A stretch of 44,205 nt of DNA from an uncultured Lachnospiraceae bacterium. Its GTDB lineage: Bacteria; Bacillota; Clostridia; Lachnospirales; Lachnospiraceae. Where the stretch lies: positions 1 to 44,205 of the forward strand of contig CANRMH010000001.1 of the NCBI GenBank assembly GCA_947631695.1. The letters are read 5' to 3'. The position numbers and the translations under genes were made by a program. Below, in pieces: positions 5,935-43,514 of the stretch (positions are counted from its first letter, which is position 1; every line of letters begins with the position of its first letter). Below the pieces are notes generated by a model. It saw only the letters and a program-made list of their open reading frames with translations, was not told the DNA's origin and ran no database searches.

Positions 5935-6244
5935 GTGATTTTCCTCCATTTTCTTTTTGTTTGTCTGAAGCTCACGGACGTCCTGCCCGCGCTTCTTCAT
6001 TGTCACATATCGTCTTTAATAGGGGAAACGCTTCCTGCGCCTCCCAGGCGCGTTCGGTATCCACGCCCTTTCCGGTCACCGGAATATTCATGCCCCGCAT
6101 GATCTTCCCGGTAATGACGGACCGGCATTATAAGCAATATACGAAGGATTCCCACCGGCTAAAGGTGTTTCCCTGTATATTTTAAATAGTCCGCACGCCC
6201 TTTGGCATGCCGGCTATCAGCCGCCTGATTCATTTGCGCGCCAT

Positions 6245-19252: not shown

Positions 19253-19530
19253 AAAAAAAGTCGCCTCCTTTTCGTACTTAAAACTTCAGTACGACAAGCG
19301 GTGACTGTACACTCTCCCGTGTGTGTCGTGAGAAACCCACACGCATATTCCTTCTACTGCTTCCCTGTAAGGACTTCTTACCGTTCCGGAAGGTTTCCTC
19401 TTTCTCAAGCGGCAGTGAAAGTAGCTCGTACAGTGACTTGTCGCCAGTTTCCTAACTTGACATTCGCTCCACGGAAAAACCTGCCACACAGGGCAGCAAC
19501 CTCTCGCTTCACAGCTATCAATGTCACAGC
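19253..19530 (-). ncRNA. Structured S10-operon 5' leader
   Basis: About 280 nt between promoter and rpsJ. The 5' part GTGAAGCGAGAGGTTGCTG...TTTCCGTGGAG resembles the Firmicute S10 leader as I recall it; a long-range stem joins 19443-19428 with 19310-19292. Confidence 0.65.
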
Positions 19531-19967: not shown

Positions 19968-21170
19968 TTACGGCAGGCGGATCTCGAAATCGGCCAGCGG
20001 CACCGGCTCGGTGACCGTATCCGGCGTATCCCCCGCCCTTCCCGGGATCTCCGCGTGCAGGGTCAGGTCCTTCTGCCCTTCGTTCAGGAACATCGTATTC
20101 ACGAAGGCTCCTCCCGCCGCCTCATTCCATCCGGCGGTCTCCGCGACATAGCTTCCGCCATTCATCCAGAAGCAGACTCTCTCTAATCCGTCCTCCCCGG
20201 AGACGTCGTGATATTCTTCGTCCGAAATACCGGGAAGCTGCGCCTCCACCAGAAGTCCCGCCCGGGTCCTGATGATATCCCTGATATGAATGTCCGCCGC
20301 GGTCTGATCCACCGGGATCGTCTCATTGTAGCTCCTGTCCACGCTCACCGGGAACCGCAGGTTCCACGCCCCGGTCAGGGAACTCTCCTTCACGGTCTGC
20401 AGCTTGCCGGTCTCTTTTGCTTTCGCCCACACGCCATCGGTCGTCAGCCCGCTGATATCCACCGTGGCGACCAGGGTATCCATCGCCTGGTACGCGGGAT
20501 CGGAGATGAGCTGCGGGGACAGCATATGGATCTGGTTCATCAGCACATAGGAGCCGTCCTCCGTCTTCCGGAAGGAACCCACAGTGCCGCCCATATTATT
20601 TTCAAACGGATCGATCCCATCTACCCCGGCGTCCGCCCACGGGAGAATCTCTTCCGCCCCGTCAAGAGCGCTGTCTCCCGTCTCCAGCATCAGCGCATAG
20701 TAGAGGATGTATCCGTCGCAGTAGACGTCCGTCACGGAGATCTTCACGCCCTTATCCTCCGTCTCCGTCACATACCCTTCCTCGCCCGCGCGCTTCGCGA
20801 GTTCCTCCTCGATGGGCAGCGCGTACTCTCCGATCTTCACGAGGGTCTCCTCCTCGCCCAGCACATAGGCGCCGCTCTCCTTTTCTTCCTTCGCGATCTC
20901 AATCAGGCTTCCGAAGACCCTGCTGAACAGATCCTTCGCCAGCGCCGGGTTGACCATTCCCGTCACTCCTACGGCGACCGCCAGCGCCGCCGCGATCCCT
21001 GAAGCCGCTTTCCATGCGCGGCCTTTTCGATTCTCATGCTTCATTTCCCGCACCTCCTTCAAAATCTTCTGCTTCTGCGCTTCCTTCTCCCCGGAAGACA
21101 GTTCCTTCATCTCATACTCGCCGAAATCCGTCTCGACTTCATTCAACAGTCCATAAATATTCTTCTCCAT
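19968..21170 (-). CDS. Putative membrane-anchored anti-sigma factor (DUF4179-like)
   Basis: Short charged N-terminus, one TM (AASGIAAALAVAVGVTG), large acidic extracytoplasmic part (GVKISVTDVYCDG, GAWNLRFPV); 1 nt downstream of the ECF sigma gene. Confidence 0.75.
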   Translation of the reverse strand: MEKNIYGLLNEVETDFGEYEMKELSSGEKEAQKQKILKEVREMKHENRKGRAWKAASGIAAALAVAVGVTGMVNPALAKDLFSRVFGSLIEIAKEEKESGAYVLGEEETLVKIGEYALPIEEELAKRAGEEGYVTETEDKGVKISVTDVYCDGYILYYALMLETGDSALDGAEEILPWADAGVDGIDPFENNMGGTVGSFRKTEDGSYVLMNQIHMLSPQLISDPAYQAMDTLVATVDISGLTTDGVWAKAKETGKLQTVKESSLTGAWNLRFPVSVDRSYNETIPVDQTAADIHIRDIIRTRAGLLVEAQLPGISDEEYHDVSGEDGLERVCFWMNGGSYVAETAGWNEAAGGAFVNTMFLNEGQKDLTLHAEIPGRAGDTPDTVTEPVPLADFEIRLP

Positions 21171-21171
21171 T

Positions 21172-21723
21172 CTAAACGCCCCTTTCCCGCCGGTATTGTC
21201 TGCGAATCCTGTTTTTGCCCCTGGACAGCCGGTTGTAGATGACCTCTTTTTTCATCCCCGTCTCCTCGCTCACCTGATCCATGCTCATCCCTTCCACATA
21301 GAGCTTCCGGAACAGTTCCCGGTCCGGCGGACTCAGGCAGTACAGCATCGTCTCAACCTCCTCCGAGATCTCCCTCTCAAGGATCCCGGCCAGCGCCCGG
21401 TCCTCCCCGGAGACCTGCACGCCGTCGATCCCCACCGTCTCCAGTTCCTTCCGGTACTGTCTCAGATAGTCGATGCAGCGGTACCTGGCGACCGCCGCCG
21501 CCCAGTTTTTAAATGTCGTCCTGCTCTCATCAAACTGCGGGATATTCATCCAGATCTTCAGCAGCACGTCATTGAAACATTCCTCCTGCCGGTCCGGGAT
21601 CCGAAAAAGGTGCCTTCGGATGACGGACATCAAAAGTCCTCCGTACCGGTCGATCACATACAGGAGAGCATCCTCGTTATGCAATTGTAATTGCCGGATA
21701 AAATTGTGTTCCCCGATTCTCAT
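21172..21723 (-). CDS. ECF-family RNA polymerase sigma factor
   Basis: Region 2 (EECFNDVLLKIW, FKNWAAAVARYRCIDYLR) and region 4 (IYNRLSRGKNRIR); ATG 21723 behind GAGGAGG. Confidence 0.93.
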   Translation of the reverse strand: MRIGEHNFIRQLQLHNEDALLYVIDRYGGLLMSVIRRHLFRIPDRQEECFNDVLLKIWMNIPQFDESRTTFKNWAAAVARYRCIDYLRQYRKELETVGIDGVQVSGEDRALAGILEREISEEVETMLYCLSPPDRELFRKLYVEGMSMDQVSEETGMKKEVIYNRLSRGKNRIRRQYRRERGV

Positions 21724-21773
21724 AGGTTCCTCCTCTTTCAGACGCGCCTGCCTGTTTGGTTCTCTCACTTATT

Positions 21774-21949: not shown

Positions 21950-22807
21950 ATGTGGATTGCCAATGACTGGAAAGATTATGAAGTGTTAGACTGCAGCGGA
22001 GGGGAAAAGCTGGAACGCTGGGGCGACTATCTTCTCGTGCGCCCGGATCCGCAGGTCATCTGGGACACGCCCAGAACCCACAGGGGATGGAAACACAGGA
22101 ACGCCCACTACCACAGAAGCAAAAAAGGCGGTGGGGAATGGGAATTCTTTCAGCTTCCCGAGCAGTGGCCGATCCACTATAAGGGCCTGACCTTCCACCT
22201 GAAACCGTTCAATTTCAAGCACACCGGCCTGTTTCCGGAGCAGGCCGTCAACTGGGACTGGTTCTCTGAAAAGATCAGACGGGCCAACCGCCCGGTGAAG
22301 GTGCTGAACCTGTTTGCCTACACCGGCGGAGCTACGCTCGCCGCGGCCAAAGCCGGAGCCAGCGTCACGCATGTGGACGCGTCGAAAGGCATGGTCGCAT
22401 GGGCGAAGGAAAACGCTGCCGCCTCCGGCCTGAAAGACGCTCCGATCCGCTGGCTGGTGGACGACTGCGTAAAATTTGTGCAGCGGGAGATCCGGAGAGG
22501 CAGCCGCTATGACGCCGTCATCATGGATCCTCCCTCCTACGGGAGAGGTCCGAAAGGAGAGATCTGGAAGATTGAAGACTCCCTTCACCCCTTTCTCAGA
22601 CTGTGCGTGAAGCTCCTGTCCGACCGGCCCCTTTTTTTCCTTATCAATTCTTATACGACCGGGCTTGCGCCGGCCGTGCTGACCTATCTGCTCGGAACGG
22701 AACTCAGGGATTACGGCGGGCATGTGGAATCAGAGGAAATAGGCCTGCCTGTGACGGAGAGCGGGCTGGCGCTGCCCTGCGGCGCTTCCGGAAGATGGGA
22801 ACGGTAG
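21950..22807 (+). CDS. Class I SAM-dependent methyltransferase (RlmI/RlmK-like, probably acting on RNA)
   Basis: HTGLFPEQ, VLNLFAYTGG, HVDAS, YDAVIMDPPSY. Confidence 0.88.
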   Translation: MWIANDWKDYEVLDCSGGEKLERWGDYLLVRPDPQVIWDTPRTHRGWKHRNAHYHRSKKGGGEWEFFQLPEQWPIHYKGLTFHLKPFNFKHTGLFPEQAVNWDWFSEKIRRANRPVKVLNLFAYTGGATLAAAKAGASVTHVDASKGMVAWAKENAAASGLKDAPIRWLVDDCVKFVQREIRRGSRYDAVIMDPPSYGRGPKGEIWKIEDSLHPFLRLCVKLLSDRPLFFLINSYTTGLAPAVLTYLLGTELRDYGGHVESEEIGLPVTESGLALPCGASGRWER

Positions 22808-22862: not shown

Positions 22863-23744
22863 TTAACATCCGCCTTTTTCCTCTCCTGTTCCTGCGATAA
22901 ACAGAACGCCCAATGTTCCAGGCCCGCAGTGGCTGGAAATCACGCCTCCCGCCCTCGTCTCATGGATCTCGTCGAAATGTTCCAGGGATTCCAGATACTC
23001 CCGAACCCGGGCGACGATCCCGGCATCCATCCCGGAATGGGTGATAAACACCCGCTTCCGGTCGGCTCCCAGAAGCGCCTCTTCCATATCCTTCACATAG
23101 TGCATGAGTACCTTCGCCATACCGCCCCGGTACTTTTTTCCCACTTCCATTTTCCCGTCCAGCACCTGAATACAGGGGTGCAGCTTCAGCGTATTGGCCA
23201 GAAGAGCCGTCGCCCCGGAGCAGCGTCCTCCTCTCGCCAGGTATGTCAGTGTGTCAACCACGAAACTCGCCCGTATCCTGCCGCATAACCGCTCCGCCCC
23301 GGCCACGATCTCTTCCGCCGGCAGTCCCTGCGCCGCCAGTTCCGCGGCGTGCAGCACCTGAAGCCCGATCCCCGTGGAAAGATTCCGGGAATCGATCACG
23401 AACACCCGGCCATTCTCAAATTCCCGGGCGGCAAGCCGGACCACATTGCAGGTCGTACTCATCTCCTCCGAAATTCCGAAGAAGATCACATCCTCCCCCG
23501 CCTCCATGCACGGCCTCAGCATCCTTTTGACATAGTCGAAAGCCACCGCCGCCGTCTTCGGCGTCTTCCGGTTTTTCTCCGCCCACGCAAAGATCTGTTC
23601 CGGCGTCAGTTCCTCCTTATCATAGTAGCTCTTCTCATCCAGCACGATGCACAGAGGGATGATTGAAATTCCATATTTCCCGATCAATTCCTCCGACAGA
23701 TCGCACGTGCTGTCGGCAAAAATTCTTACTCTTCTCTCCTCCAT
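22863..23744 (-). CDS. DegV (FakB-like) fatty-acid-binding protein
   Basis: IFADSTCDL, PKTAA, VIDSRNLSTG, TLTYLARGGR, SHCGPGTLG. Confidence 0.93.
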   Translation of the reverse strand: MEERRVRIFADSTCDLSEELIGKYGISIIPLCIVLDEKSYYDKEELTPEQIFAWAEKNRKTPKTAAVAFDYVKRMLRPCMEAGEDVIFFGISEEMSTTCNVVRLAAREFENGRVFVIDSRNLSTGIGLQVLHAAELAAQGLPAEEIVAGAERLCGRIRASFVVDTLTYLARGGRCSGATALLANTLKLHPCIQVLDGKMEVGKKYRGGMAKVLMHYVKDMEEALLGADRKRVFITHSGMDAGIVARVREYLESLEHFDEIHETRAGGVISSHCGPGTLGVLFIAGTGEEKGGC

Positions 23745-23745
23745 C

Positions 23746-26466
23746 TCAGTCTCCCTCCTCTTTTTCCGGCTCTTTGGGAAGCTCTCTTCGCCCGAGCCTT
23801 ACCTCCTCCATCTCCCGCGCCATCTCGCGGTCCATATGGTCAAACAGGTAATTCCTTCTGCGGCGTCCTCTCTGCCGGCCGCATTCTTCCCGGATCTGCC
23901 GCCGGACGATCTCCATCTCCTCCTGAAATTCCGTCGCGGACATCAAAGTCCCGCCCTGGCCGAGCGTGACCACCTGCTCCACCCCGTCCGAGGTGGCCAC
24001 CGTGACATGGTATTTCCTTCCGATCTCATGGACGACCTTTTCTATATACTGGTCCGCCGTCTCCGCCTCTTTGGTGTAGACTACATGGATATTATGATAT
24101 TTCTGGATCTCCATCGTGCATCCTTCCACGCGGTAAGCATCAAACACCAGGATCACCGCGCACTTCCGGAACCCCTGGTAATTGCACAGGATATCCATCA
24201 GGCGGGCGCGGGCCGCTTCTATATTTACTTCGGCAAGTTCTCTCAATTCGTCCCACGAAAAGATCATATTGTAACCGTCCACCAGAAGATACTCCCTGAG
24301 CGTTTTTTCCCTTCCCGGCCTCGCCGCATCGGCCCTCACCGTCTTTGCGGACACGTCCGGCTTCCGTTCGATCTTTCCATAAGTCCGGATAAAAATTTCC
24401 TCCAGTTCCTTCTCCTCCGTCCGCTTCGCCGCGGATGTCTGGCGCTTCCGAAAAGCCCCCTCACCGGAGGCCTCTGCGCCGGCGCTTCCCGGTTTCAGGC
24501 GGCTCTGCACATGCATATGCTCCGGTGCCTGGTCCCAGGGGATGTAAACCCCTGCGCCGTGCGAGCAGAAAATCGAGCCGGCGGGATTGTCTGTATCCCG
24601 TTCCGGGTCATACCCGCACGCCTCTATCACTTCCTTTTCATTATGGCAGGGCGCGTATCCTCCAAAGGAACAGAACAGCCTTCCCTGTCCCCGGGTATAG
24701 ACGGCAACCTCCCTCTGGTAATCCCGCATCGCCGCTACCGGAGCGCTTCCCGTCAGCACGGACATTCCCCTCCTGATCTCTGGCGTCCCGCATTTCCCGT
24801 ACATTCTCTGGACGTCTGTAAGCGCCCGGCCGACCGTCCCAGACGGGACTTCCAGCCGGAACTGATAGTACGGCTCCAGCAGCACGCTCCTGGCACTCAT
24901 CAGGCCCTGACGCACCGCCCGGTAGGTCGCCTGCCGGAAATCTCCCCCTTCGGTATGCTTTATATGCGCCCGGCCGGCCGTCAGCAGGATCTGCATATCC
25001 GTAATCGCCGCTCCGGTCAGCACCCCTCTGTGAACCTTTTCCGCCAGATGCGTCAGCACCAGTCTCTGCCAGTTCCTATCCAGCATATCTTCACTGCAAC
25101 ACGTACCGAACGTCAGACCGCTTCCCCGCTTCCCCGGCTTCAGCAGCAGATGTACTTCCGCGTAATGGCGCAGCGGCTCATAATGGCCCACGCCCTCCGC
25201 CTCCGTGCATATCGTTTCCTTATATACGATACTTCCCGTATCGAAAGTGACCGAAACGCCAAACCGCTCCCTGATCAGGCTCTGCAAAATCTCGATCTGC
25301 ACCTCTCCCATCAGCTGCGCGTGGATCTCTCCCGATTCTTCCCTCCACACGATCCTCAGCATCGGGTCCTCCTCCTCCAGCTGGCGGAGATTCTGCAGCA
25401 TGGTATGTGCATCGCATCCGTCCGGCAGCTGGATCCGGTAATTCAACACAGGTTCCAGAACCGGAGCGCCGGAATCCTTCTCCACTCCCAGCCCTTCCCC
25501 GGGATACGTATCGTTCAGCCCCGTAACCGCGCACACAACGCCGGCTTTTGCCTCCTGCACCGCCTCAAACTTCTCCCCGGAATAGATCCGGATCTGATTT
25601 ACCTTTTCCTCCCGGTGATCCTGCGCGCTCTTCGCATTTCCCAACACATCCTTTACCTTCAGGATCCCGCTCATGACTCTCATGTGGGTCAGCCGGTTCC
25701 CCTGCGCGTCCCTGGAAATCTTATACACCTTTGCGCCGAAAGGCGCGCCTTCCTCCCGGCTGCGGGGGATGCCGAAGCGTTCCAGTCCGTCCAGCAATTC
25801 CTTTACTCCCTGCATTTTCAGAGCGGAACCAAAAAAGCACGGGAACACTCTGCGCTGCGCGATCAGGGCGGCGATTGTTTCCGCCCCAACCGTTCCGCTG
25901 TTTAAATATTCCTCAAGCGCGCTCTCGTCACACACGGCAACGTTCTCTTTTAATTCGTCGCTTTCAAAGTCTCCGAAATCAATGCATCCTCCGTCCAGCT
26001 CACGCTGTAACTGATCCAGCAGCGCGCCGCGGTCCGTTCCCTCCTGATCCATTTTATTGACAAACAAAAAGACCGGTATGCGATATTGCTGCAGAAGGTT
26101 CCAGAGCGTACGGGTGTGTCCCTGTACTCCGTCCGCGCCGTTGACGATGAGTACCGCATAATCCAGAATCTGAAGGGTGCGTTCCATCTCCGCAGAAAAA
26201 TCTACATGTCCCGGGGTATCGAGAAGCGTCACATCCGTCTCGCCAAGCCGGAACACCGCCTGTTTGGAAAAAATAGTGATCCCCCGGTTTTTTTCCAGCG
26301 CATACGTGTCCAGAAAAGTATCGCCGTGATCCACCCGCCCGGGCTTCCTGATCCTGCCGCTTAAATACAGGATGCTCTCGGACAACGTGGTTTTTCCGGA
26401 GTCCACATGGGCCAGCAAACCCACGCAGATATGTCCGGGCGAATGATTTTCAGCTGCCGTTCCCAT
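23746..26466 (-). CDS. TetM/EF-G-like translational GTPase fused to a C-terminal YacP/Rae1-type NYN ribonuclease domain
   Basis: G1-G5 motifs AHVDSGKTT, RGITI, DTPGH, NKMD, GSAL; EF-G-like domains III-V (LEEEDP, LMGEVQIEI, LLEPY); NYN motifs LLVDGYNMI, LVFDA, ETADQYIE, VATSD. Start uncertain (26466 ATG or 26502 TTG). Confidence 0.9.
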   Translation of the reverse strand: MGTAAENHSPGHICVGLLAHVDSGKTTLSESILYLSGRIRKPGRVDHGDTFLDTYALEKNRGITIFSKQAVFRLGETDVTLLDTPGHVDFSAEMERTLQILDYAVLIVNGADGVQGHTRTLWNLLQQYRIPVFLFVNKMDQEGTDRGALLDQLQRELDGGCIDFGDFESDELKENVAVCDESALEEYLNSGTVGAETIAALIAQRRVFPCFFGSALKMQGVKELLDGLERFGIPRSREEGAPFGAKVYKISRDAQGNRLTHMRVMSGILKVKDVLGNAKSAQDHREEKVNQIRIYSGEKFEAVQEAKAGVVCAVTGLNDTYPGEGLGVEKDSGAPVLEPVLNYRIQLPDGCDAHTMLQNLRQLEEEDPMLRIVWREESGEIHAQLMGEVQIEILQSLIRERFGVSVTFDTGSIVYKETICTEAEGVGHYEPLRHYAEVHLLLKPGKRGSGLTFGTCCSEDMLDRNWQRLVLTHLAEKVHRGVLTGAAITDMQILLTAGRAHIKHTEGGDFRQATYRAVRQGLMSARSVLLEPYYQFRLEVPSGTVGRALTDVQRMYGKCGTPEIRRGMSVLTGSAPVAAMRDYQREVAVYTRGQGRLFCSFGGYAPCHNEKEVIEACGYDPERDTDNPAGSIFCSHGAGVYIPWDQAPEHMHVQSRLKPGSAGAEASGEGAFRKRQTSAAKRTEEKELEEIFIRTYGKIERKPDVSAKTVRADAARPGREKTLREYLLVDGYNMIFSWDELRELAEVNIEAARARLMDILCNYQGFRKCAVILVFDAYRVEGCTMEIQKYHNIHVVYTKEAETADQYIEKVVHEIGRKYHVTVATSDGVEQVVTLGQGGTLMSATEFQEEMEIVRRQIREECGRQRGRRRRNYLFDHMDREMAREMEEVRLGRRELPKEPEKEEGD

Positions 26467-26571
26467 CAAAAATACCCCTTTCCGCCGTCTGTCGTATTTC
26501 AATCCTTATCATATCACAGAAAAAGAAATCCGTCGATATTTCTTATCGCTATGCCGTCCGCCATAAAATGC

Positions 26572-26604
26572 GGGAGGGCAGAAACCTTTCGGCTCTGCCC
26601 TCCC
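26572..26604. terminator. Strong hairpin, probable terminator downstream of the GH97 gene
   Basis: GGGAGGGCAGA ... TCTGCCCTCCC, 11-bp perfect stem; U-tail weak on both strands. Confidence 0.55.
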
Positions 26605-26764: not shown

Positions 26765-29700
26765 TCATTTTACCGGTTCTACATACTTCAGGAACCTCTG
26801 GATGATCGTTGCGCAGACAGAGCGGAACGTCTTCCCCTGCGGGTTCAGCAGGCCGGTCTCGCCTTCGCCGCTGATCAATCCGTTCTCCACCGACCAGGTC
26901 ATACCGTCCGTCAGGGTGACGTCCTTCCAGTCCGGGAATCCCGTCAGGTCAGTGTCCGTCACCGTAATATAACCTTTATACGCTGCGTATCTCAGCATCA
27001 TAACCGCCATCTGCTCCCTGGTAATATCGTCGCCCGGGCCGAAGAATCCGGTGGGATTTCCTTTCTCATCTTCGTACCCTTTGACAATGCCCGCGCCGGT
27101 CGCCCATGTCACCGCGTCCAGATAGAAGCAGTCCTTATCGTCATACGGCACATCCCGGAAGACAACTGCGTTCTCTCCCTGCGCAGGCGGTACATTTCCC
27201 TCCATTCTGTACAGGATCGTCGCAAACTGCGCGCGGCTCAGTTTTTCCCCCGCTCCGAAAAATGGAGTCGGCTGTCCCTTTTCATCCTTTAATCCGGTCA
27301 TGATCCCTTTGTCGTAGACGTATTTCACCGCGTCCGCATACCAGTTCTTCTCCTTGTTCACATCCTGGAAAGGCAGATTCCAGACGGGATCCTCCGGTTT
27401 CTCCTCCGCTTTCAGATCCCTGAGCGCGATCCGGTCGATGTTCGGCGCGTCCGCCTCGTTGTTGTACAGGCAGATGCTGTTGTCTCCGGCTTTCAGACTC
27501 ACTTTTGTGTTCACTGCCCCAACCGCTTCCCAGTCTCCTGAAATTCCCAGAAGCCCCGACAGCCGAACGGGTTCGCCGTCGTTGACTTTTATGTACAGAT
27601 CCCTGGGCGATCCGGTCACAAAGAACACCCGCAGATCATACTCCCCTTCTTTGTCGGCCTTTACATTCCGGAAGGTCAGCGTATTGCCCTCGCCATTTCC
27701 TATGTATCCTACGACATTCAGCATAGAAGAATAATTGTTCTTTGCGATCCTTGCGTTGCCGCCAATCTCCGCGTCCTCCGCTTCAAAGTAAGTGTACCTG
27801 TCGTACTCCAGCTTTCTGGCCGGCTGGGTCGGCTCGTCCGTCTGAGGATCATTCTTCACAAGCTTCACCACGCACCCGCCGTATTGCATAAGATCCAGTT
27901 TCAGCACCGTATTCACATTCGCCTTCTGCACGGCCGTTTCAATATTTGTGCCGGCCGCGTTGTCACGGTAAATGTATGCGGTGTAGGAAACTCCCTTGTC
28001 CAGGAAATCAAGCGATACTTCATAAGCGCCAGCCGCATTGGTCATTGCGCCCAGATACCAGCTTTCCCCGTTTCTCCTTGCACGGATCACATTCTCTGCC
28101 GGGTATCCGTCCAGAAGAAGGCTCTCATCCCAGACCGTCGGCAGATCTGCCAGCAGGGAAAGTCCCGGATATCCTTCATACACATACGCGGACGCCGCAT
28201 AGGTCTGCACCGCCGACTCGTAGACAACCGGCATCGCCAGCATGAAACCTGCCGTTCCGTCCGACCTTGCCACCTTATATGCCGTTGGAGTAAATTCCAT
28301 AGAGCCGAGTACGTTTCTGGTATACGGCAGCGTCAGCAGGGAACCGATGCTGGATCCGTTGCTCCACTTAAAGTTCTCCGCTCCCGCGACCGCCTCGTTG
28401 GCGAGAATGTTCGGATAGGTGCGCGCCTCCCCGTTCGGATTGGTCGCGCCGTGATAGTTCAGTACCAGGTGATGTTTTGCGGCAAAATCCGCGAGCAGAT
28501 ACATCACCTTCATGGCAAACTGGCTGTCGCTGTTGATATAATCCACTTTCACGCCCTTAACGCCCATCCTCTCGCACCATGCGAACGATTCCTCGATCGC
28601 GTCTTCGCTGTCCAGGTCGAAGATATGCGCGTTGTCGAATTTATTTACGCCGTACCACAAAAGCAGGCCGACATTTTTCTCGTTCGCATATTCTACCAGG
28701 GAGGCGATCTTCGTCTCGTAGTCGGGCCACATTTCCCATCCGTAGTCCACCAGGCAGTAGGGCATTCCGCAATTTGCCGCAAAATCAATATAATCCCGCA
28801 TCTGATCGTAATCAATGCCGTCCGCCGCAGTCGACCACCAGGACCAGACGGAGCCGCCCGGTTTCACCCAGCTGAAGTCGCCGTCCGCAGACGGATTCAG
28901 ATCCGTGATCAGGCTGCTGTTCGCGATTCCTTCCAGATCATCCGCAATGACCGCAACACGCCACGGCGTATGGAAGGTTCCCTGCATGTTCACTTTGTCT
29001 ATGGTATGGTAGATGGGATCGTAAGTCCGCCGGTCAAAACTCTCATCAGCCTCCTGTTCCAGATAATTTCCAAAAGTCATCCGGAAGGACTTCTTTCCCG
29101 TCTCCGTCTTAAATACAGACGCGCAGTACGGATTTTCTTCATTATATACGTTCGCTTCGGATAACAGCACCCATCTGTTCCCCGAATCCTCACCGAGGGA
29201 GGCAAGAAGCGGCGTGGAATAATTTGCCGCCGCGCTGTACTGTTCGGCTACCGTATGCTTCGTATACTCGTAATTCTCGTAGGTTGCGCTCGGTCCGATC
29301 GTCCAGATATCGCCCTTGTCCGGCAGAGTGAATTCACTTTTTTCACTGGTTACCGCCGTTGTCTCATTCTCGCCGGCGACATCTGCGTCCACCAGATACC
29401 GATAACCGATCCCATCGTCGAAGACACGGAAAATAACCGTCATCTCACTGTTGTTTTTATAAAGCATGAAGGATAACTCGTTGTATTTCTTATCCACGGA
29501 GGAAACGCTTCCCTGGATCAGGTCATATTTTTCCTCCCCGCTCTTTGCGCTGATGGAATCCTCCTTCAGCGTCAGTCCGGAAGTCAGATCCTCCTTGTCG
29601 GTTGTCATTCCGAGTGCGGAACACTCCACGACTACCTTATCCTCCTTGGACACGGAATAATAATAAGCGTCCCTGCTGTCTTTCCAGATCTTCACCTTGA

Positions 29701-30649
29701 TCTTTCCATCTTCCGAGGCTGCCAGGAGCTGTTCTACCTGCGTAAGCCGCGTACCATCCTGATAGATTCCCTCCTGCGCGTTTTCGCCGGGATCCTCCTT
29801 CGGATCGGAAACTTCCAGTCCATAGCCTTCCGCGATCGTCTTCACGTCCTTTGCGGACAGAGCCGTCCTGTAAACCGCCACGTCGTCAAGCTGCACTTTG
29901 CAGTCCGGATCGCCCCAGGTGGAGCAGGTCTTCCCCAGCGCATTATTGACCAGTTCGCCGATGGAATCCAGCCGGGTTTTCAGATTGGATACGCTCCCTC
30001 CCTGAAAGCTGGAACCCACAACTTCACCGTTCACATAGAATACCACCTTGTCCGCCGACACGGTAATCGTTATATAGTTCCACACGTTCTTCTCCGGTTC
30101 CGTCGTGTAAATATGGCGGTACAGATTGGTCGTGTCAAAGATCAGATTCCACACGTGGTCGTCCGCGTACGGGGCGTAAGCAAATTCATCCGAGCTGCCT
30201 GCGTTGGCCGAACTGAATACCCTGGAGTACTTTACCACATCAGGATCCGTCTTCATCCAGAAGGACCAGGTAAGCCCGGTAGATGAGTTCACGCCCGCAT
30301 ACAACTCGGACGGCAGATCCACATAAGAGCTTCCGTTGTTTCCTCCTTTTAACGTCAGTACATGGTTGGTGTCGGAAGAATACGCCTTATCTCCGATTTT
30401 GATCGTTCCGGCGTCCACGCTGGCCGTCCCGCGCAAGGCTGCGTTCCCTGCGGATACGGAACCGCTGTTGGAAATCTCCGCGCCGTTTACTGTCTCAAAA
30501 TCCCATTGGTACGCCGGGACGGCCTCTGCAGCCCGAACTTCTCCGGAACCTGCCTCCTGCGCGTTCACCGGAACGGCATACACGCCCTGCGGAAGCAGCA
30601 TCGCCGCCGCCAGCAGCGCCGACAATTTTTTTGCTGTTGTTCGTCTCAT
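26765..30649 (-). CDS. Secreted SLH-anchored glycoside hydrolase family 97 (signal peptide, LamG-like, GH97, CBM6/35-like, SLH)
   Basis: Signal peptide; LamG-like WNYITITV..VFYVNG, LDDVAVY; GH97 FRVFDDGIGYRY, TPWRVAVI, SWVKPG, GVKVDY, NYHGAT.PNG, GSMEFTP; CBM FEAEDA ... PNIDRI; SLH WYADAVKYV, SRAQFATILYR, TREQMAVMM. Confidence 0.9.
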   Translation of the reverse strand: MRRTTAKKLSALLAAAMLLPQGVYAVPVNAQEAGSGEVRAAEAVPAYQWDFETVNGAEISNSGSVSAGNAALRGTASVDAGTIKIGDKAYSSDTNHVLTLKGGNNGSSYVDLPSELYAGVNSSTGLTWSFWMKTDPDVVKYSRVFSSANAGSSDEFAYAPYADDHVWNLIFDTTNLYRHIYTTEPEKNVWNYITITVSADKVVFYVNGEVVGSSFQGGSVSNLKTRLDSIGELVNNALGKTCSTWGDPDCKVQLDDVAVYRTALSAKDVKTIAEGYGLEVSDPKEDPGENAQEGIYQDGTRLTQVEQLLAASEDGKIKVKIWKDSRDAYYYSVSKEDKVVVECSALGMTTDKEDLTSGLTLKEDSISAKSGEEKYDLIQGSVSSVDKKYNELSFMLYKNNSEMTVIFRVFDDGIGYRYLVDADVAGENETTAVTSEKSEFTLPDKGDIWTIGPSATYENYEYTKHTVAEQYSAAANYSTPLLASLGEDSGNRWVLLSEANVYNEENPYCASVFKTETGKKSFRMTFGNYLEQEADESFDRRTYDPIYHTIDKVNMQGTFHTPWRVAVIADDLEGIANSSLITDLNPSADGDFSWVKPGGSVWSWWSTAADGIDYDQMRDYIDFAANCGMPYCLVDYGWEMWPDYETKIASLVEYANEKNVGLLLWYGVNKFDNAHIFDLDSEDAIEESFAWCERMGVKGVKVDYINSDSQFAMKVMYLLADFAAKHHLVLNYHGATNPNGEARTYPNILANEAVAGAENFKWSNGSSIGSLLTLPYTRNVLGSMEFTPTAYKVARSDGTAGFMLAMPVVYESAVQTYAASAYVYEGYPGLSLLADLPTVWDESLLLDGYPAENVIRARRNGESWYLGAMTNAAGAYEVSLDFLDKGVSYTAYIYRDNAAGTNIETAVQKANVNTVLKLDLMQYGGCVVKLVKNDPQTDEPTQPARKLEYDRYTYFEAEDAEIGGNARIAKNNYSSMLNVVGYIGNGEGNTLTFRNVKADKEGEYDLRVFFVTGSPRDLYIKVNDGEPVRLSGLLGISGDWEAVGAVNTKVSLKAGDNSICLYNNEADAPNIDRIALRDLKAEEKPEDPVWNLPFQDVNKEKNWYADAVKYVYDKGIMTGLKDEKGQPTPFFGAGEKLSRAQFATILYRMEGNVPPAQGENAVVFRDVPYDDKDCFYLDAVTWATGAGIVKGYEDEKGNPTGFFGPGDDITREQMAVMMLRYAAYKGYITVTDTDLTGFPDWKDVTLTDGMTWSVENGLISGEGETGLLNPQGKTFRSVCATIIQRFLKYVEPVK

Positions 30650-43364: not shown

Positions 43365-43438
43365 CCGCCGCAGTGCGATCCCGCGGAACGCTTTTTGTTT
43401 CATAGGGGACAAAGTTTCCTGTGAAACAAAAAAGTGCG
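43365..43438 (-). repeat. Two-hairpin repeat, copy A, abutting the tRNA-Leu 3' end
   Basis: See copy B at 37524-37584. First hairpin TTTTTGTTTCACAGG...CCTATGAAACAAAAA could also serve as the tRNA terminator. Confidence 0.75.
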
Positions 43439-43514
43439 GATAACAGGACTTGAACCTGCACGGGAATCCCACCAGATCCTAAATCTGGCGCGTCTGCCAT
43501 TCCGCCATATCCGC
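43435..43514 (-). tRNA. tRNA-Leu (anticodon TAG)
   Basis: Acceptor GCGGATA/TATCCGC plus A, anticodon arm CCAGA-TTTAGGA-TCTGG, variable arm GGGATTCCC, T arm GCAGG-TTCAAGT-CCTGT; CCA not encoded. Confidence 0.97.

Follow-up and report, generated by a model that had tools for sequence, protein, structure and literature searches.

A predicted GTPase-Rae1 fusion protein as the only Rae1-type nuclease found in a Lachnospiraceae genome and in sampled relatives that carry it

The nuclease Rae1 (YacP) of Bacillus subtilis cuts mRNA behind stalled ribosomes (PMC12407103). In the available part of an earlier report it was first modelled in the ribosomal A site (PMC10351889), a model that its authors withdrew when three cuts turned out to map 12 nt upstream (PMC12407103). 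The accessible portion of a 2026 preprint describes Rae1-dependent tagging by transfer-messenger RNA (tmRNA) upon ribosome collisions and names the recognition step of Rae1 as open, there being no ribosome-bound structure since binding is transient (PMC13622287). The text of two recent Rae1 papers makes no mention of TetM, GTPase or Clostridia. The subject of the present analysis is a gene of an uncultured Lachnospiraceae bacterium (GenBank assembly GCA_947631695.1, contig CANRMH010000001.1), lying within a stretch of 44,205 nt (positions 1 to 44,205 of the contig, referred to here as the window). Its predicted product joins a Tet-like translational GTPase to a Rae1-type nuclease on one chain, and it is the only Rae1-type nuclease found in that genome.

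The architecture itself is not new and the gene is a member of a catalogued family. Atkinson 2015, in the part available, reports the fusion in ten Clostridiales species, where it was filed under Tet and listed for testing, with RNase-based resistance or a role with rRNA suggested (PMC4342817), and the corresponding part of Matelska et al. 2017 calls its role unclear (PMC5499597). A first-pass annotation of the window, made from the sequence alone, had taken the architecture to be probably in domain databases; it is present there, and also in the two papers of 2015 and 2017. That annotation knew of no functional study, and none was found in literature searches, most subscription journals being outside their reach. 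It also took cleavage by Rae1 in the A site as its premise, which falls with the withdrawn model.

The fused protein

The gene and its parts are listed below (aa, amino acids).

23746..26466, minus strand: whole gene of the GTPase-Rae1 fusion, 906 aa in one open frame, a Tet-like translational GTPase plus NYN_YacP
25780..26433, minus strand: G domain (aa 12-229), with G1, switch I RGIT, DTPGH with catalytic His87, NKxD and G5 intact
25243..25740, minus strand: domains II and III (aa 243-408), from Pfam
24892..25233, minus strand: domain IV (aa 412-525), from Pfam
25153..25188, minus strand: domain IV loop I, signature GH[FY]EPLRHYAE, from alignment
24928..24975, minus strand: domain IV loop III, signature H-x-KHT-x-GGDFR, replacing the Tet and EF-G loops
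24649..24885, minus strand: domain V (aa 528-606), from Pfam
24502..24648, minus strand: family-specific C-terminal extension of the GTPase (aa 607-655), about 50 aa, helix, beta-hairpin, helix
24295..24501, minus strand: charged linker (aa 656-724), predicted disordered
24379..24435, minus strand: conserved mid-linker helix, ELEEIFxRTYG, from alignment and predicted structure
23797..24294, minus strand: Rae1-type NYN domain (aa 725-890), from Pfam, alignment and fold match
26475..26480, minus strand: ribosome-binding site AAGGGG, 8 nt 5′ of the ATG at 26466, read from the sequence

An in-frame GTPase with domains I-V and an intact NYN domain do stand on one protein, as the first-pass annotation had it. 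All Pfam domains of the 906-aa frame score over their cut-offs (GTP_EFTU 12-229, II 243-323, III 338-408, IV 412-525, V 528-611 and NYN_YacP 727-890), and the motifs quoted earlier are found in their places, with VDGYN starting at 24282, VFDA at 24147, TAD at 24060, ATSD at 23997 and, in domain IV, GRAHIKHTEGGDFRQA at 24975. An assembly join is excluded, because the best 119 other homologues listed, among them proteins named from Dorea, Bariatricus and Faecalicatena, all have the GTPase domains and PF05991 on a single chain.

With G1-G5 and the catalytic His intact and domains II-V present, the protein belongs to the EF2 family of translational GTPases, and its G domain has a short G′ insert like that of Tet proteins. 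For counts of invariance, 159 fused and 122 nuclease-less proteins were reduced to 53 and 55, respectively, at 75% identity. Residues D22, G24, K25, T26, R61, G62, T64, D83-H87, N137, K138 and D140 are invariant in 53/53 non-redundant fused relatives. The best-conserved part is domain IV, with a mean identity to eight relatives of 76% versus 64% for the G domain; H434 and E437 of its loop I are invariant in all 108 non-redundant members, fused plus unfused. When aligned, the loops of the fusion (HIKHTEGG and EPLRHY) stand opposite YSPVST and PNPFW in two true Tet proteins and YHEVDSS and GGRGQYGH in the genome's own EF-G, and match neither, in agreement with the earlier description of a domain IV loop unlike TetM/TetO or EF-G.

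Two features go beyond the first-pass annotation, namely the extension of about 50 aa after domain V and the conserved mid-linker helix. The extension is common to fused and unfused members, is missing from 29 outgroup rows at those columns and has near-invariant residues at C607, Y619, D624, S631, F633, C634, G637, W644 and H652. Structure alignment to TetM (3j9y) reaches model residue 646, and alignments to bacterial EF-G end near 620. A metal site or RNA contacts could be formed by the near-invariant Cys607, Cys634 and His652 in the extension and, at the tip of domain IV, by His428, His434, His501 and His504. A search of the ESM Atlas with residues 600-700 returned no match at 0.9 or above.

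The nuclease part matches NYN_YacP (PF05991) at residues 727-890 (E-value 2e-53; 181 bits vs. a cut-off of 24.6) and has the D-GYN motif. Its residues D730, D776, D805 and D827 align to D7, D53, D81 and D104 of Rae1 (numbering counted from the alignment), and these four catalytic-type Asp are invariant in 53/53 non-redundant fused relatives; D7N/D81N is the published catalytic mutant of Rae1 in the part of that report available (PMC10351889). The domain is conserved as well as the GTPase (71% vs. 64% for the G domain, eight relatives). The predicted fold of the nuclease aligns with B. subtilis Rae1 (5mq8) with Z 18.0 and a root-mean-square deviation of 2.0 over 137 residues, the next match having Z 8.5, and Foldseek also matches it to Rae1 (E-value 3e-12). 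The linker measures 67-123 aa in 23 proteins and has an identity of 28% among relatives. AlphaFold modelled the 906 aa with a mean predicted local distance difference test score (pLDDT) of 88 and a predicted template modelling score (pTM) of 0.71, residues 660-681 and 697-721 being disordered on either side of a weak helix, and the C-terminal part folded alone gave the same picture of a disordered linker.

There is also a degenerate fusion of 978 aa in another genome (G063; L036:1132-4068), in which G1 is altered and the domain IV loops and the extension are lost, with all four nuclease Asp intact. It seems to be a natural case of upkeep of the Rae1 half only.

Placement, distribution and inheritance

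A first tree of the GTPase was distorted by the long branch of L036, which was omitted from later trees. The main tree (54 rows, LG+G4, rooted on four EF-Gs) holds on its Tet side only two true Tet, two Otr-like and three other Tet-like rows. Within it, a single clade (100/100) unites the fused with the unfused members, and the Tet/Otr-like rows (100/98) are its sister group. Nested in that clade is another (100/100), made up of the 28 fused rows together with a frameshifted fusion and a nuclease-less Ligilactobacillus protein. Since the fused rows form a 100/100 clade with nuclease-less members branching deeper, a single fusion event with later loss of the nuclease fits the tree. The tree of the nuclease domain has deep branches without resolution, and whether the fused nuclease derives from a resident rae1 or from elsewhere is undecidable from it.

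The fusion scores 416 against a cut-off of 775 (NF012153) and 284 against 1100 (NF033148) with the NCBIfam Tet models, which two true members pass, and 289 against 659 with the EF-G model TIGR00484. The genome also carries a canonical EF-G of its own and a second EF-G-like gene. Scores below the cut-offs, the separate clade and the resident EF-G support the view, put forward earlier, that this GTPase belongs neither to the Tet ribosomal protection family nor to the canonical EF-Gs. Other Tet-like GTPases (L035:5831-7756, L138, L139 and L141) group with Tet/Otr and not with the fusion family. The first of these is below the resistance cut-off, and its His-rich loop III (HHLEHT) lies between the Tet and fusion-family types.

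Distribution was scored in three samples, of the family (100 genomes, one per genus), the class (119 genomes scored; G319 unscored) and the phylum (130 genomes), which overlap in four genomes and in which kin are not independent. The single PF05991 match of this genome (completeness 91%) is that of the fusion. In the family sample PF05991 was found in 88 genomes, 79 times in frames of at least 840 aa, six times stand-alone and three times in shorter frames that also have a GTPase match; the other 12 lack both PF05991 and the GTPase half. Class genomes have it in 76/119 cases (40 fused, one frameshifted fusion and 35 stand-alone), the 41 fusions, including the frameshifted one, being spread over 20 families, and phylum genomes in 74/130, six of them fused. 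Across the three samples no genome has both a fused and a stand-alone PF05991 over the cut-off; one genome (G250) has an extra match below it. The fusion is thus the sole predicted Rae1-type nuclease found in this genome and in the sampled carriers.

Homologues are mostly fused rather than encoding the two domains separately. With representatives taken at 50% identity, the best 150 include 99 that have both the G domain and the extension; 73 of these have the NYN motif, two more have it in a looser form (one, P0365, confirmed by Pfam) and one more of 914 aa is unconfirmed, which gives 75-76 fused and 23-24 not fused. A fusion of 843 aa in a record of Barnesiella intestinihominis (L057), from another phylum, groups with Oscillospiraceae, reflecting either transfer or bin contamination.

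Stand-alone rae1 sits directly after rlmB in all 29 of the phylum loci that were fetched from about 67 stand-alone matches, as well as in 5/6 family loci. None of 29 fusion carriers (24 plus five more) has rae1 after rlmB, nor does this genome, where sigH starts 14 nt past the rlmB match with no rae1 between, and the gap from rlmB to sigH measures 9-68 nt in 15/24 fusion carriers. Within the family, identity of the fusion tracks identity of RlmB (Spearman 0.69, 17 genomes; 1 of 2000 permutations), and inheritance there appears to be mostly vertical. Five out-of-class genomes lack the operon rae1 and carry a fusion with 59-65% identity to a family member, compared with 47-51% for their RlmB. 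This is consistent with transfer of the fusion followed by displacement of the operon rae1.

Proposed function and alternatives

The fusion very probably does the job of Rae1. With less assurance, though still on the favourable side, docking of the GTPase is proposed to direct the cut. The fuller scheme, in which the GTPase docks on a stalled ribosome, delivers the tethered Rae1 and feeds rescue by tmRNA, is given an even chance. A wider extension is offered tentatively and would have to be judged less probable: that a distinct GTPase family, misfiled as Tet, serves specifically to sense ribosomes stalled with an empty A site, that in one lineage it took up Rae1 and ousted the ancestral rae1 gene across gut Clostridia, and that GTP-driven docking at the factor site licenses cleavage of mRNA.

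In the proposed scheme, the fusion in its GTP form would bind the factor-binding site of the ribosome, as do, to our knowledge, all characterised members of the EF-G family. It would favour the leading, stalled ribosome over queued ones, because the accessible part of a study of E. coli disomes has the queued ribosome's factor site obstructed by bL9 (PMC10897467). The invariant His/Arg-rich loops of domain IV, with the extension, might then probe an A site that has long been vacant, the step with the least support. Tet-type factors work on ribosomes with a vacant A site. The tether would reach the mRNA exit (about 200 Å at full stretch, a rough estimate) and the nuclease would cut the mRNA behind the stalled ribosome, after which the trailing ribosome would be handed to tmRNA rescue. 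Hydrolysis of GTP would free the factor and trans-translation would clear the truncated message. The genome has genes for tmRNA, SmpB, MutS2 and an RqcH-type protein.

Several observations weigh against this scheme. The junction of rlmB and sigH is also closed in 4/5 Rae1-less genomes tested, so that an empty slot also occurs outside the fusion carriers and is no proof of cause. The fusion gene is dispensable, since 12/100 family genomes lack both halves, and no conserved operon partner or neighbourhood was found among 71 of 87 extracted neighbours. The disordered linker and the pTM of 0.71 are consistent with an undocked nuclease, and delivery would need a well-extended linker, its reach being roughly estimated at 200 Å at most and about 50 Å as a coil. 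The nuclease-less members of about 650 aa, which form the deeper branches, keep the same domain IV loops and the extension. Of ten sampled genomes with a nuclease-less GTPase, five have a stand-alone Rae1 elsewhere; in the other five (95-99% complete) neither a PF05991 match nor a rae1 next to rlmB was found, which points to a GTPase that is independent of Rae1. Only one of 35 class genomes with stand-alone Rae1 carries this GTPase. Each predicted half therefore persists somewhere without the other.

These last points bear most directly on the main rival, that of independent halves. Here two jobs would share one chain: the nuclease would be an ordinary Rae1 that finds stalls alone, the GTPase would have a ribosome job of its own (unjamming, recycling or a stress response), and the fusion would only co-express the two or raise the local concentration of the nuclease. 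Besides the persistence of both halves alone in many genomes, it can draw on the long, variable and undocked linker, on a domain IV signature shared by members that have the nuclease and members that lack it, and on the Ligilactobacillus member that is nested in the fused clade without one. The earlier description of a one-protein factor is likewise left unproven by the nuclease-less members, some of them in genomes without detected Rae1. However, what appears to be a single fusion (clade 100/100) has persisted in 20 families and through transfer to other classes, a conserved helix survives within the linker, and 75-76 of the 99 full-length representatives among the best 150 are fused. Independent halves are considered unlikely, and are the most serious of the alternatives.

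An obligate pairing of the nuclease-less GTPase with stand-alone Rae1 had been suggested by the family sample, where 4/4 such genomes have Rae1 and 0/12 Rae1-less genomes have the GTPase. It was rejected in the class sample, in which 5/6 such genomes are without a PF05991 match.

The nested Ligilactobacillus protein is encoded on L. salivarius pMP118 (L201:3825-5759), where it is annotated as Tet and lies divergent from an 89-aa S14 gene. Similar matches occur on 26 L. salivarius megaplasmid records. A link of the GTPase family to a zinc-free S14 gene was considered and rejected, as the open reading frame of similar size beside the Neobacillus member is a tRNA cluster read as a frame, and the S14 gene beside the Ligilactobacillus member is a one-off. 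Directly upstream of two other nuclease-less members (L032:3990-6187 and L034:8393-10725) lies a TIGR03916/TIGR03915 radical-SAM DNA-repair pair.

It is improbable that the nuclease, placed by the GTPase, acts on rRNA or tRNA in maturation or in the disposal of faulty subunits. Such a target is proposed in the available parts of both earlier accounts (PMC4342817, PMC5499597), and it would suit the origin in the cysS-mrnC-rlmB operon, where stand-alone rae1 adjoins the genes for Mini-III and RlmB, as well as the scattered translation-related neighbours of the fusion (YlmH twice, RF3 twice and RsmF once among 71 scanned). Against it, the characterised orthologue from the same operon shows translation-dependent cleavage of mRNA, the neighbours are not conserved and 12/100 family genomes do without the gene. 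The first-pass annotation had also allowed for cleavage of rRNA, and nothing in the analysis points there.

A role in which the protein shields the ribosome from tetracycline or from some other A-site drug, the nuclease being accessory, is rated lower again. The best NCBIfam and PDB sequence matches of the fusion are Tet proteins, its clade is sister to the Tet/Otr group, and the short G′ and the C-terminal extension are like those of TetM. Public databases label these genes TetM, TetW, TetO or TetS, and the misleading Tet label that had been anticipated is seen among homologue and plasmid records. Nevertheless, the score of 416 falls well short of 775, and the fusion has replaced loop III, which in Tet(M) displaces the drug according to the part of that study available (PMC4750697). 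The gene is single-copy, widespread and largely vertical in its inheritance, and nine fusion carriers hold separate Tet-like frames of 643-644 aa, the two tested being true TetM/W/O/S members. No transposase, integrase or relaxase family was found among 71 of 87 neighbours scanned, and the best 30 of 1184 plasmid records are all on replicons of 138-760 kb, 26 of them in Ligilactobacillus salivarius. A family member was found in 2/28 phage records. A literature search on the Ligilactobacillus member found no minimal inhibitory concentration data.

Least probable of all, by a narrow step, is a RelE-style cutter whose GTPase opens or vacates the A site for the tethered nuclease to cut the codon there: it has the first model of Rae1 on its side (PMC10351889, in the part available) and an extension bearing the linker that, by analogy with TetM, would lie near the decoding centre, but that model was withdrawn over the three upstream cuts (PMC12407103), and domain IV itself would, from the established geometry of EF-G and Tet, occupy the A site while the GTPase is bound.

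If the GTPase does dock and deliver Rae1 as proposed, the fusion would offer a trappable handle for the missing Rae1-ribosome structure and would be a bacterial GTPase-nuclease rescue factor on one chain. The recognition question could be put to a direct test by trapping this naturally GTPase-bound Rae1 on its ribosome, either through a GTP analogue that resists hydrolysis or through a mutation that inactivates the GTPase. Under the same proposal, a GTPase family present in most genomes of a major gut family would gain a function. In gut and probiotic genomes, the number of resistance genes may be overstated as a result of the Tet labels on these genes.

Gene surroundings and comparison with known systems

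The fusion is flanked by a GH97 gene and a DegV gene and has a guanine-cytosine content of 57-59%, close to that of its downstream neighbours. The DegV/FakB-type fatty-acid-binding gene (22863-23744, minus strand) and the fusion are probably co-transcribed, because DegV starts 1 nt after the fusion stop; the DegV family is absent among the 71 neighbours scanned around relatives of the fusion. In the sequence that separates the fusion from the GH97 gene, a perfect 11-bp inverted repeat (26572-26604) was picked out by eye; it went unflagged by the terminator scan, which gave six terminator-like sites against 3.6 in shuffles (standard deviation 1.7). An extended -10 promoter-like site is present at 26536-26508 and is not above chance, the promoter scan giving two such sites against a shuffle mean of 2.3.

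Ordinary neighbours in the window are an SLH-anchored GH97 glycosidase (26765-30649, minus strand), an extracytoplasmic function (ECF) sigma factor with a DUF4179 partner (19968-21768, minus strand) and an RlmI/RlmK-like methyltransferase (21950-22807, plus strand). S10-Clostridia and S4-Clostridia leaders and one tRNA are found at 19438-19520, 6015-6072 and 43435-43514, all on the minus strand, and a ribosomal protein operon runs from 19252, about 4.5 kb off the fusion. In two related genomes a gene with a YlmH domain overlaps or abuts the start of the fusion (L042:4035-4778 and L065:3239-3988), and in two others (L046 and L057) an RF3 gene adjoins it.

Among described systems, the clostridial TetM-like/NYN_YacP fusions of 2015 and 2017 share architecture and taxonomic group with this protein, the two features by which they were matched. 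Beyond what the available parts of those accounts contain, the points added here are that the fusion is the sole predicted Rae1 of most genomes in a large family, that the operon copy appears to have been replaced, and that the GTPase forms a clade outside Tet/Otr. Like the fusion, TetM, TetO, TetW and Otr(A), its sister group, have the five-domain plan of EF-G with a short G′ and a C-terminal extension. The fusion differs from these in loops I and III, is 25-28% identical from domain IV to the extension, scores below their cut-off, and has a largely vertical inheritance and an added nuclease. With EF-G (TIGR00484) and the EF-G2 paralogues it shares the G motifs, the order of domains and the fold (Z up to 41), but most of G′ is missing from it, as are the loops GGRGQYGH and YHEVDSS.

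The nuclease half resembles Rae1/YacP of B. subtilis (PF05991; 5MQ8, 5MQ9) in fold, in the aligned D7/D53/D81/D104 and in being the product of a single PF05991 gene. However, Rae1 of B. subtilis is a stand-alone protein of about 170 aa encoded in the cysS-mrnC-rlmB-rae1-sigH operon, whereas the nuclease of the fusion is linked to a GTPase of 655 aa and encoded at an unrelated locus. The proposed logic of the fusion, a cut in the mRNA at stalled or collided ribosomes followed by tmRNA rescue, is that of SmrB of E. coli, of MutS2 and of the Rae1/tmRNA 'CART' pathway (PMC13622287), as far as the accessible portion of that source describes them. None of these is described there as using a translational GTPase to reach the ribosome, as the fusion would.

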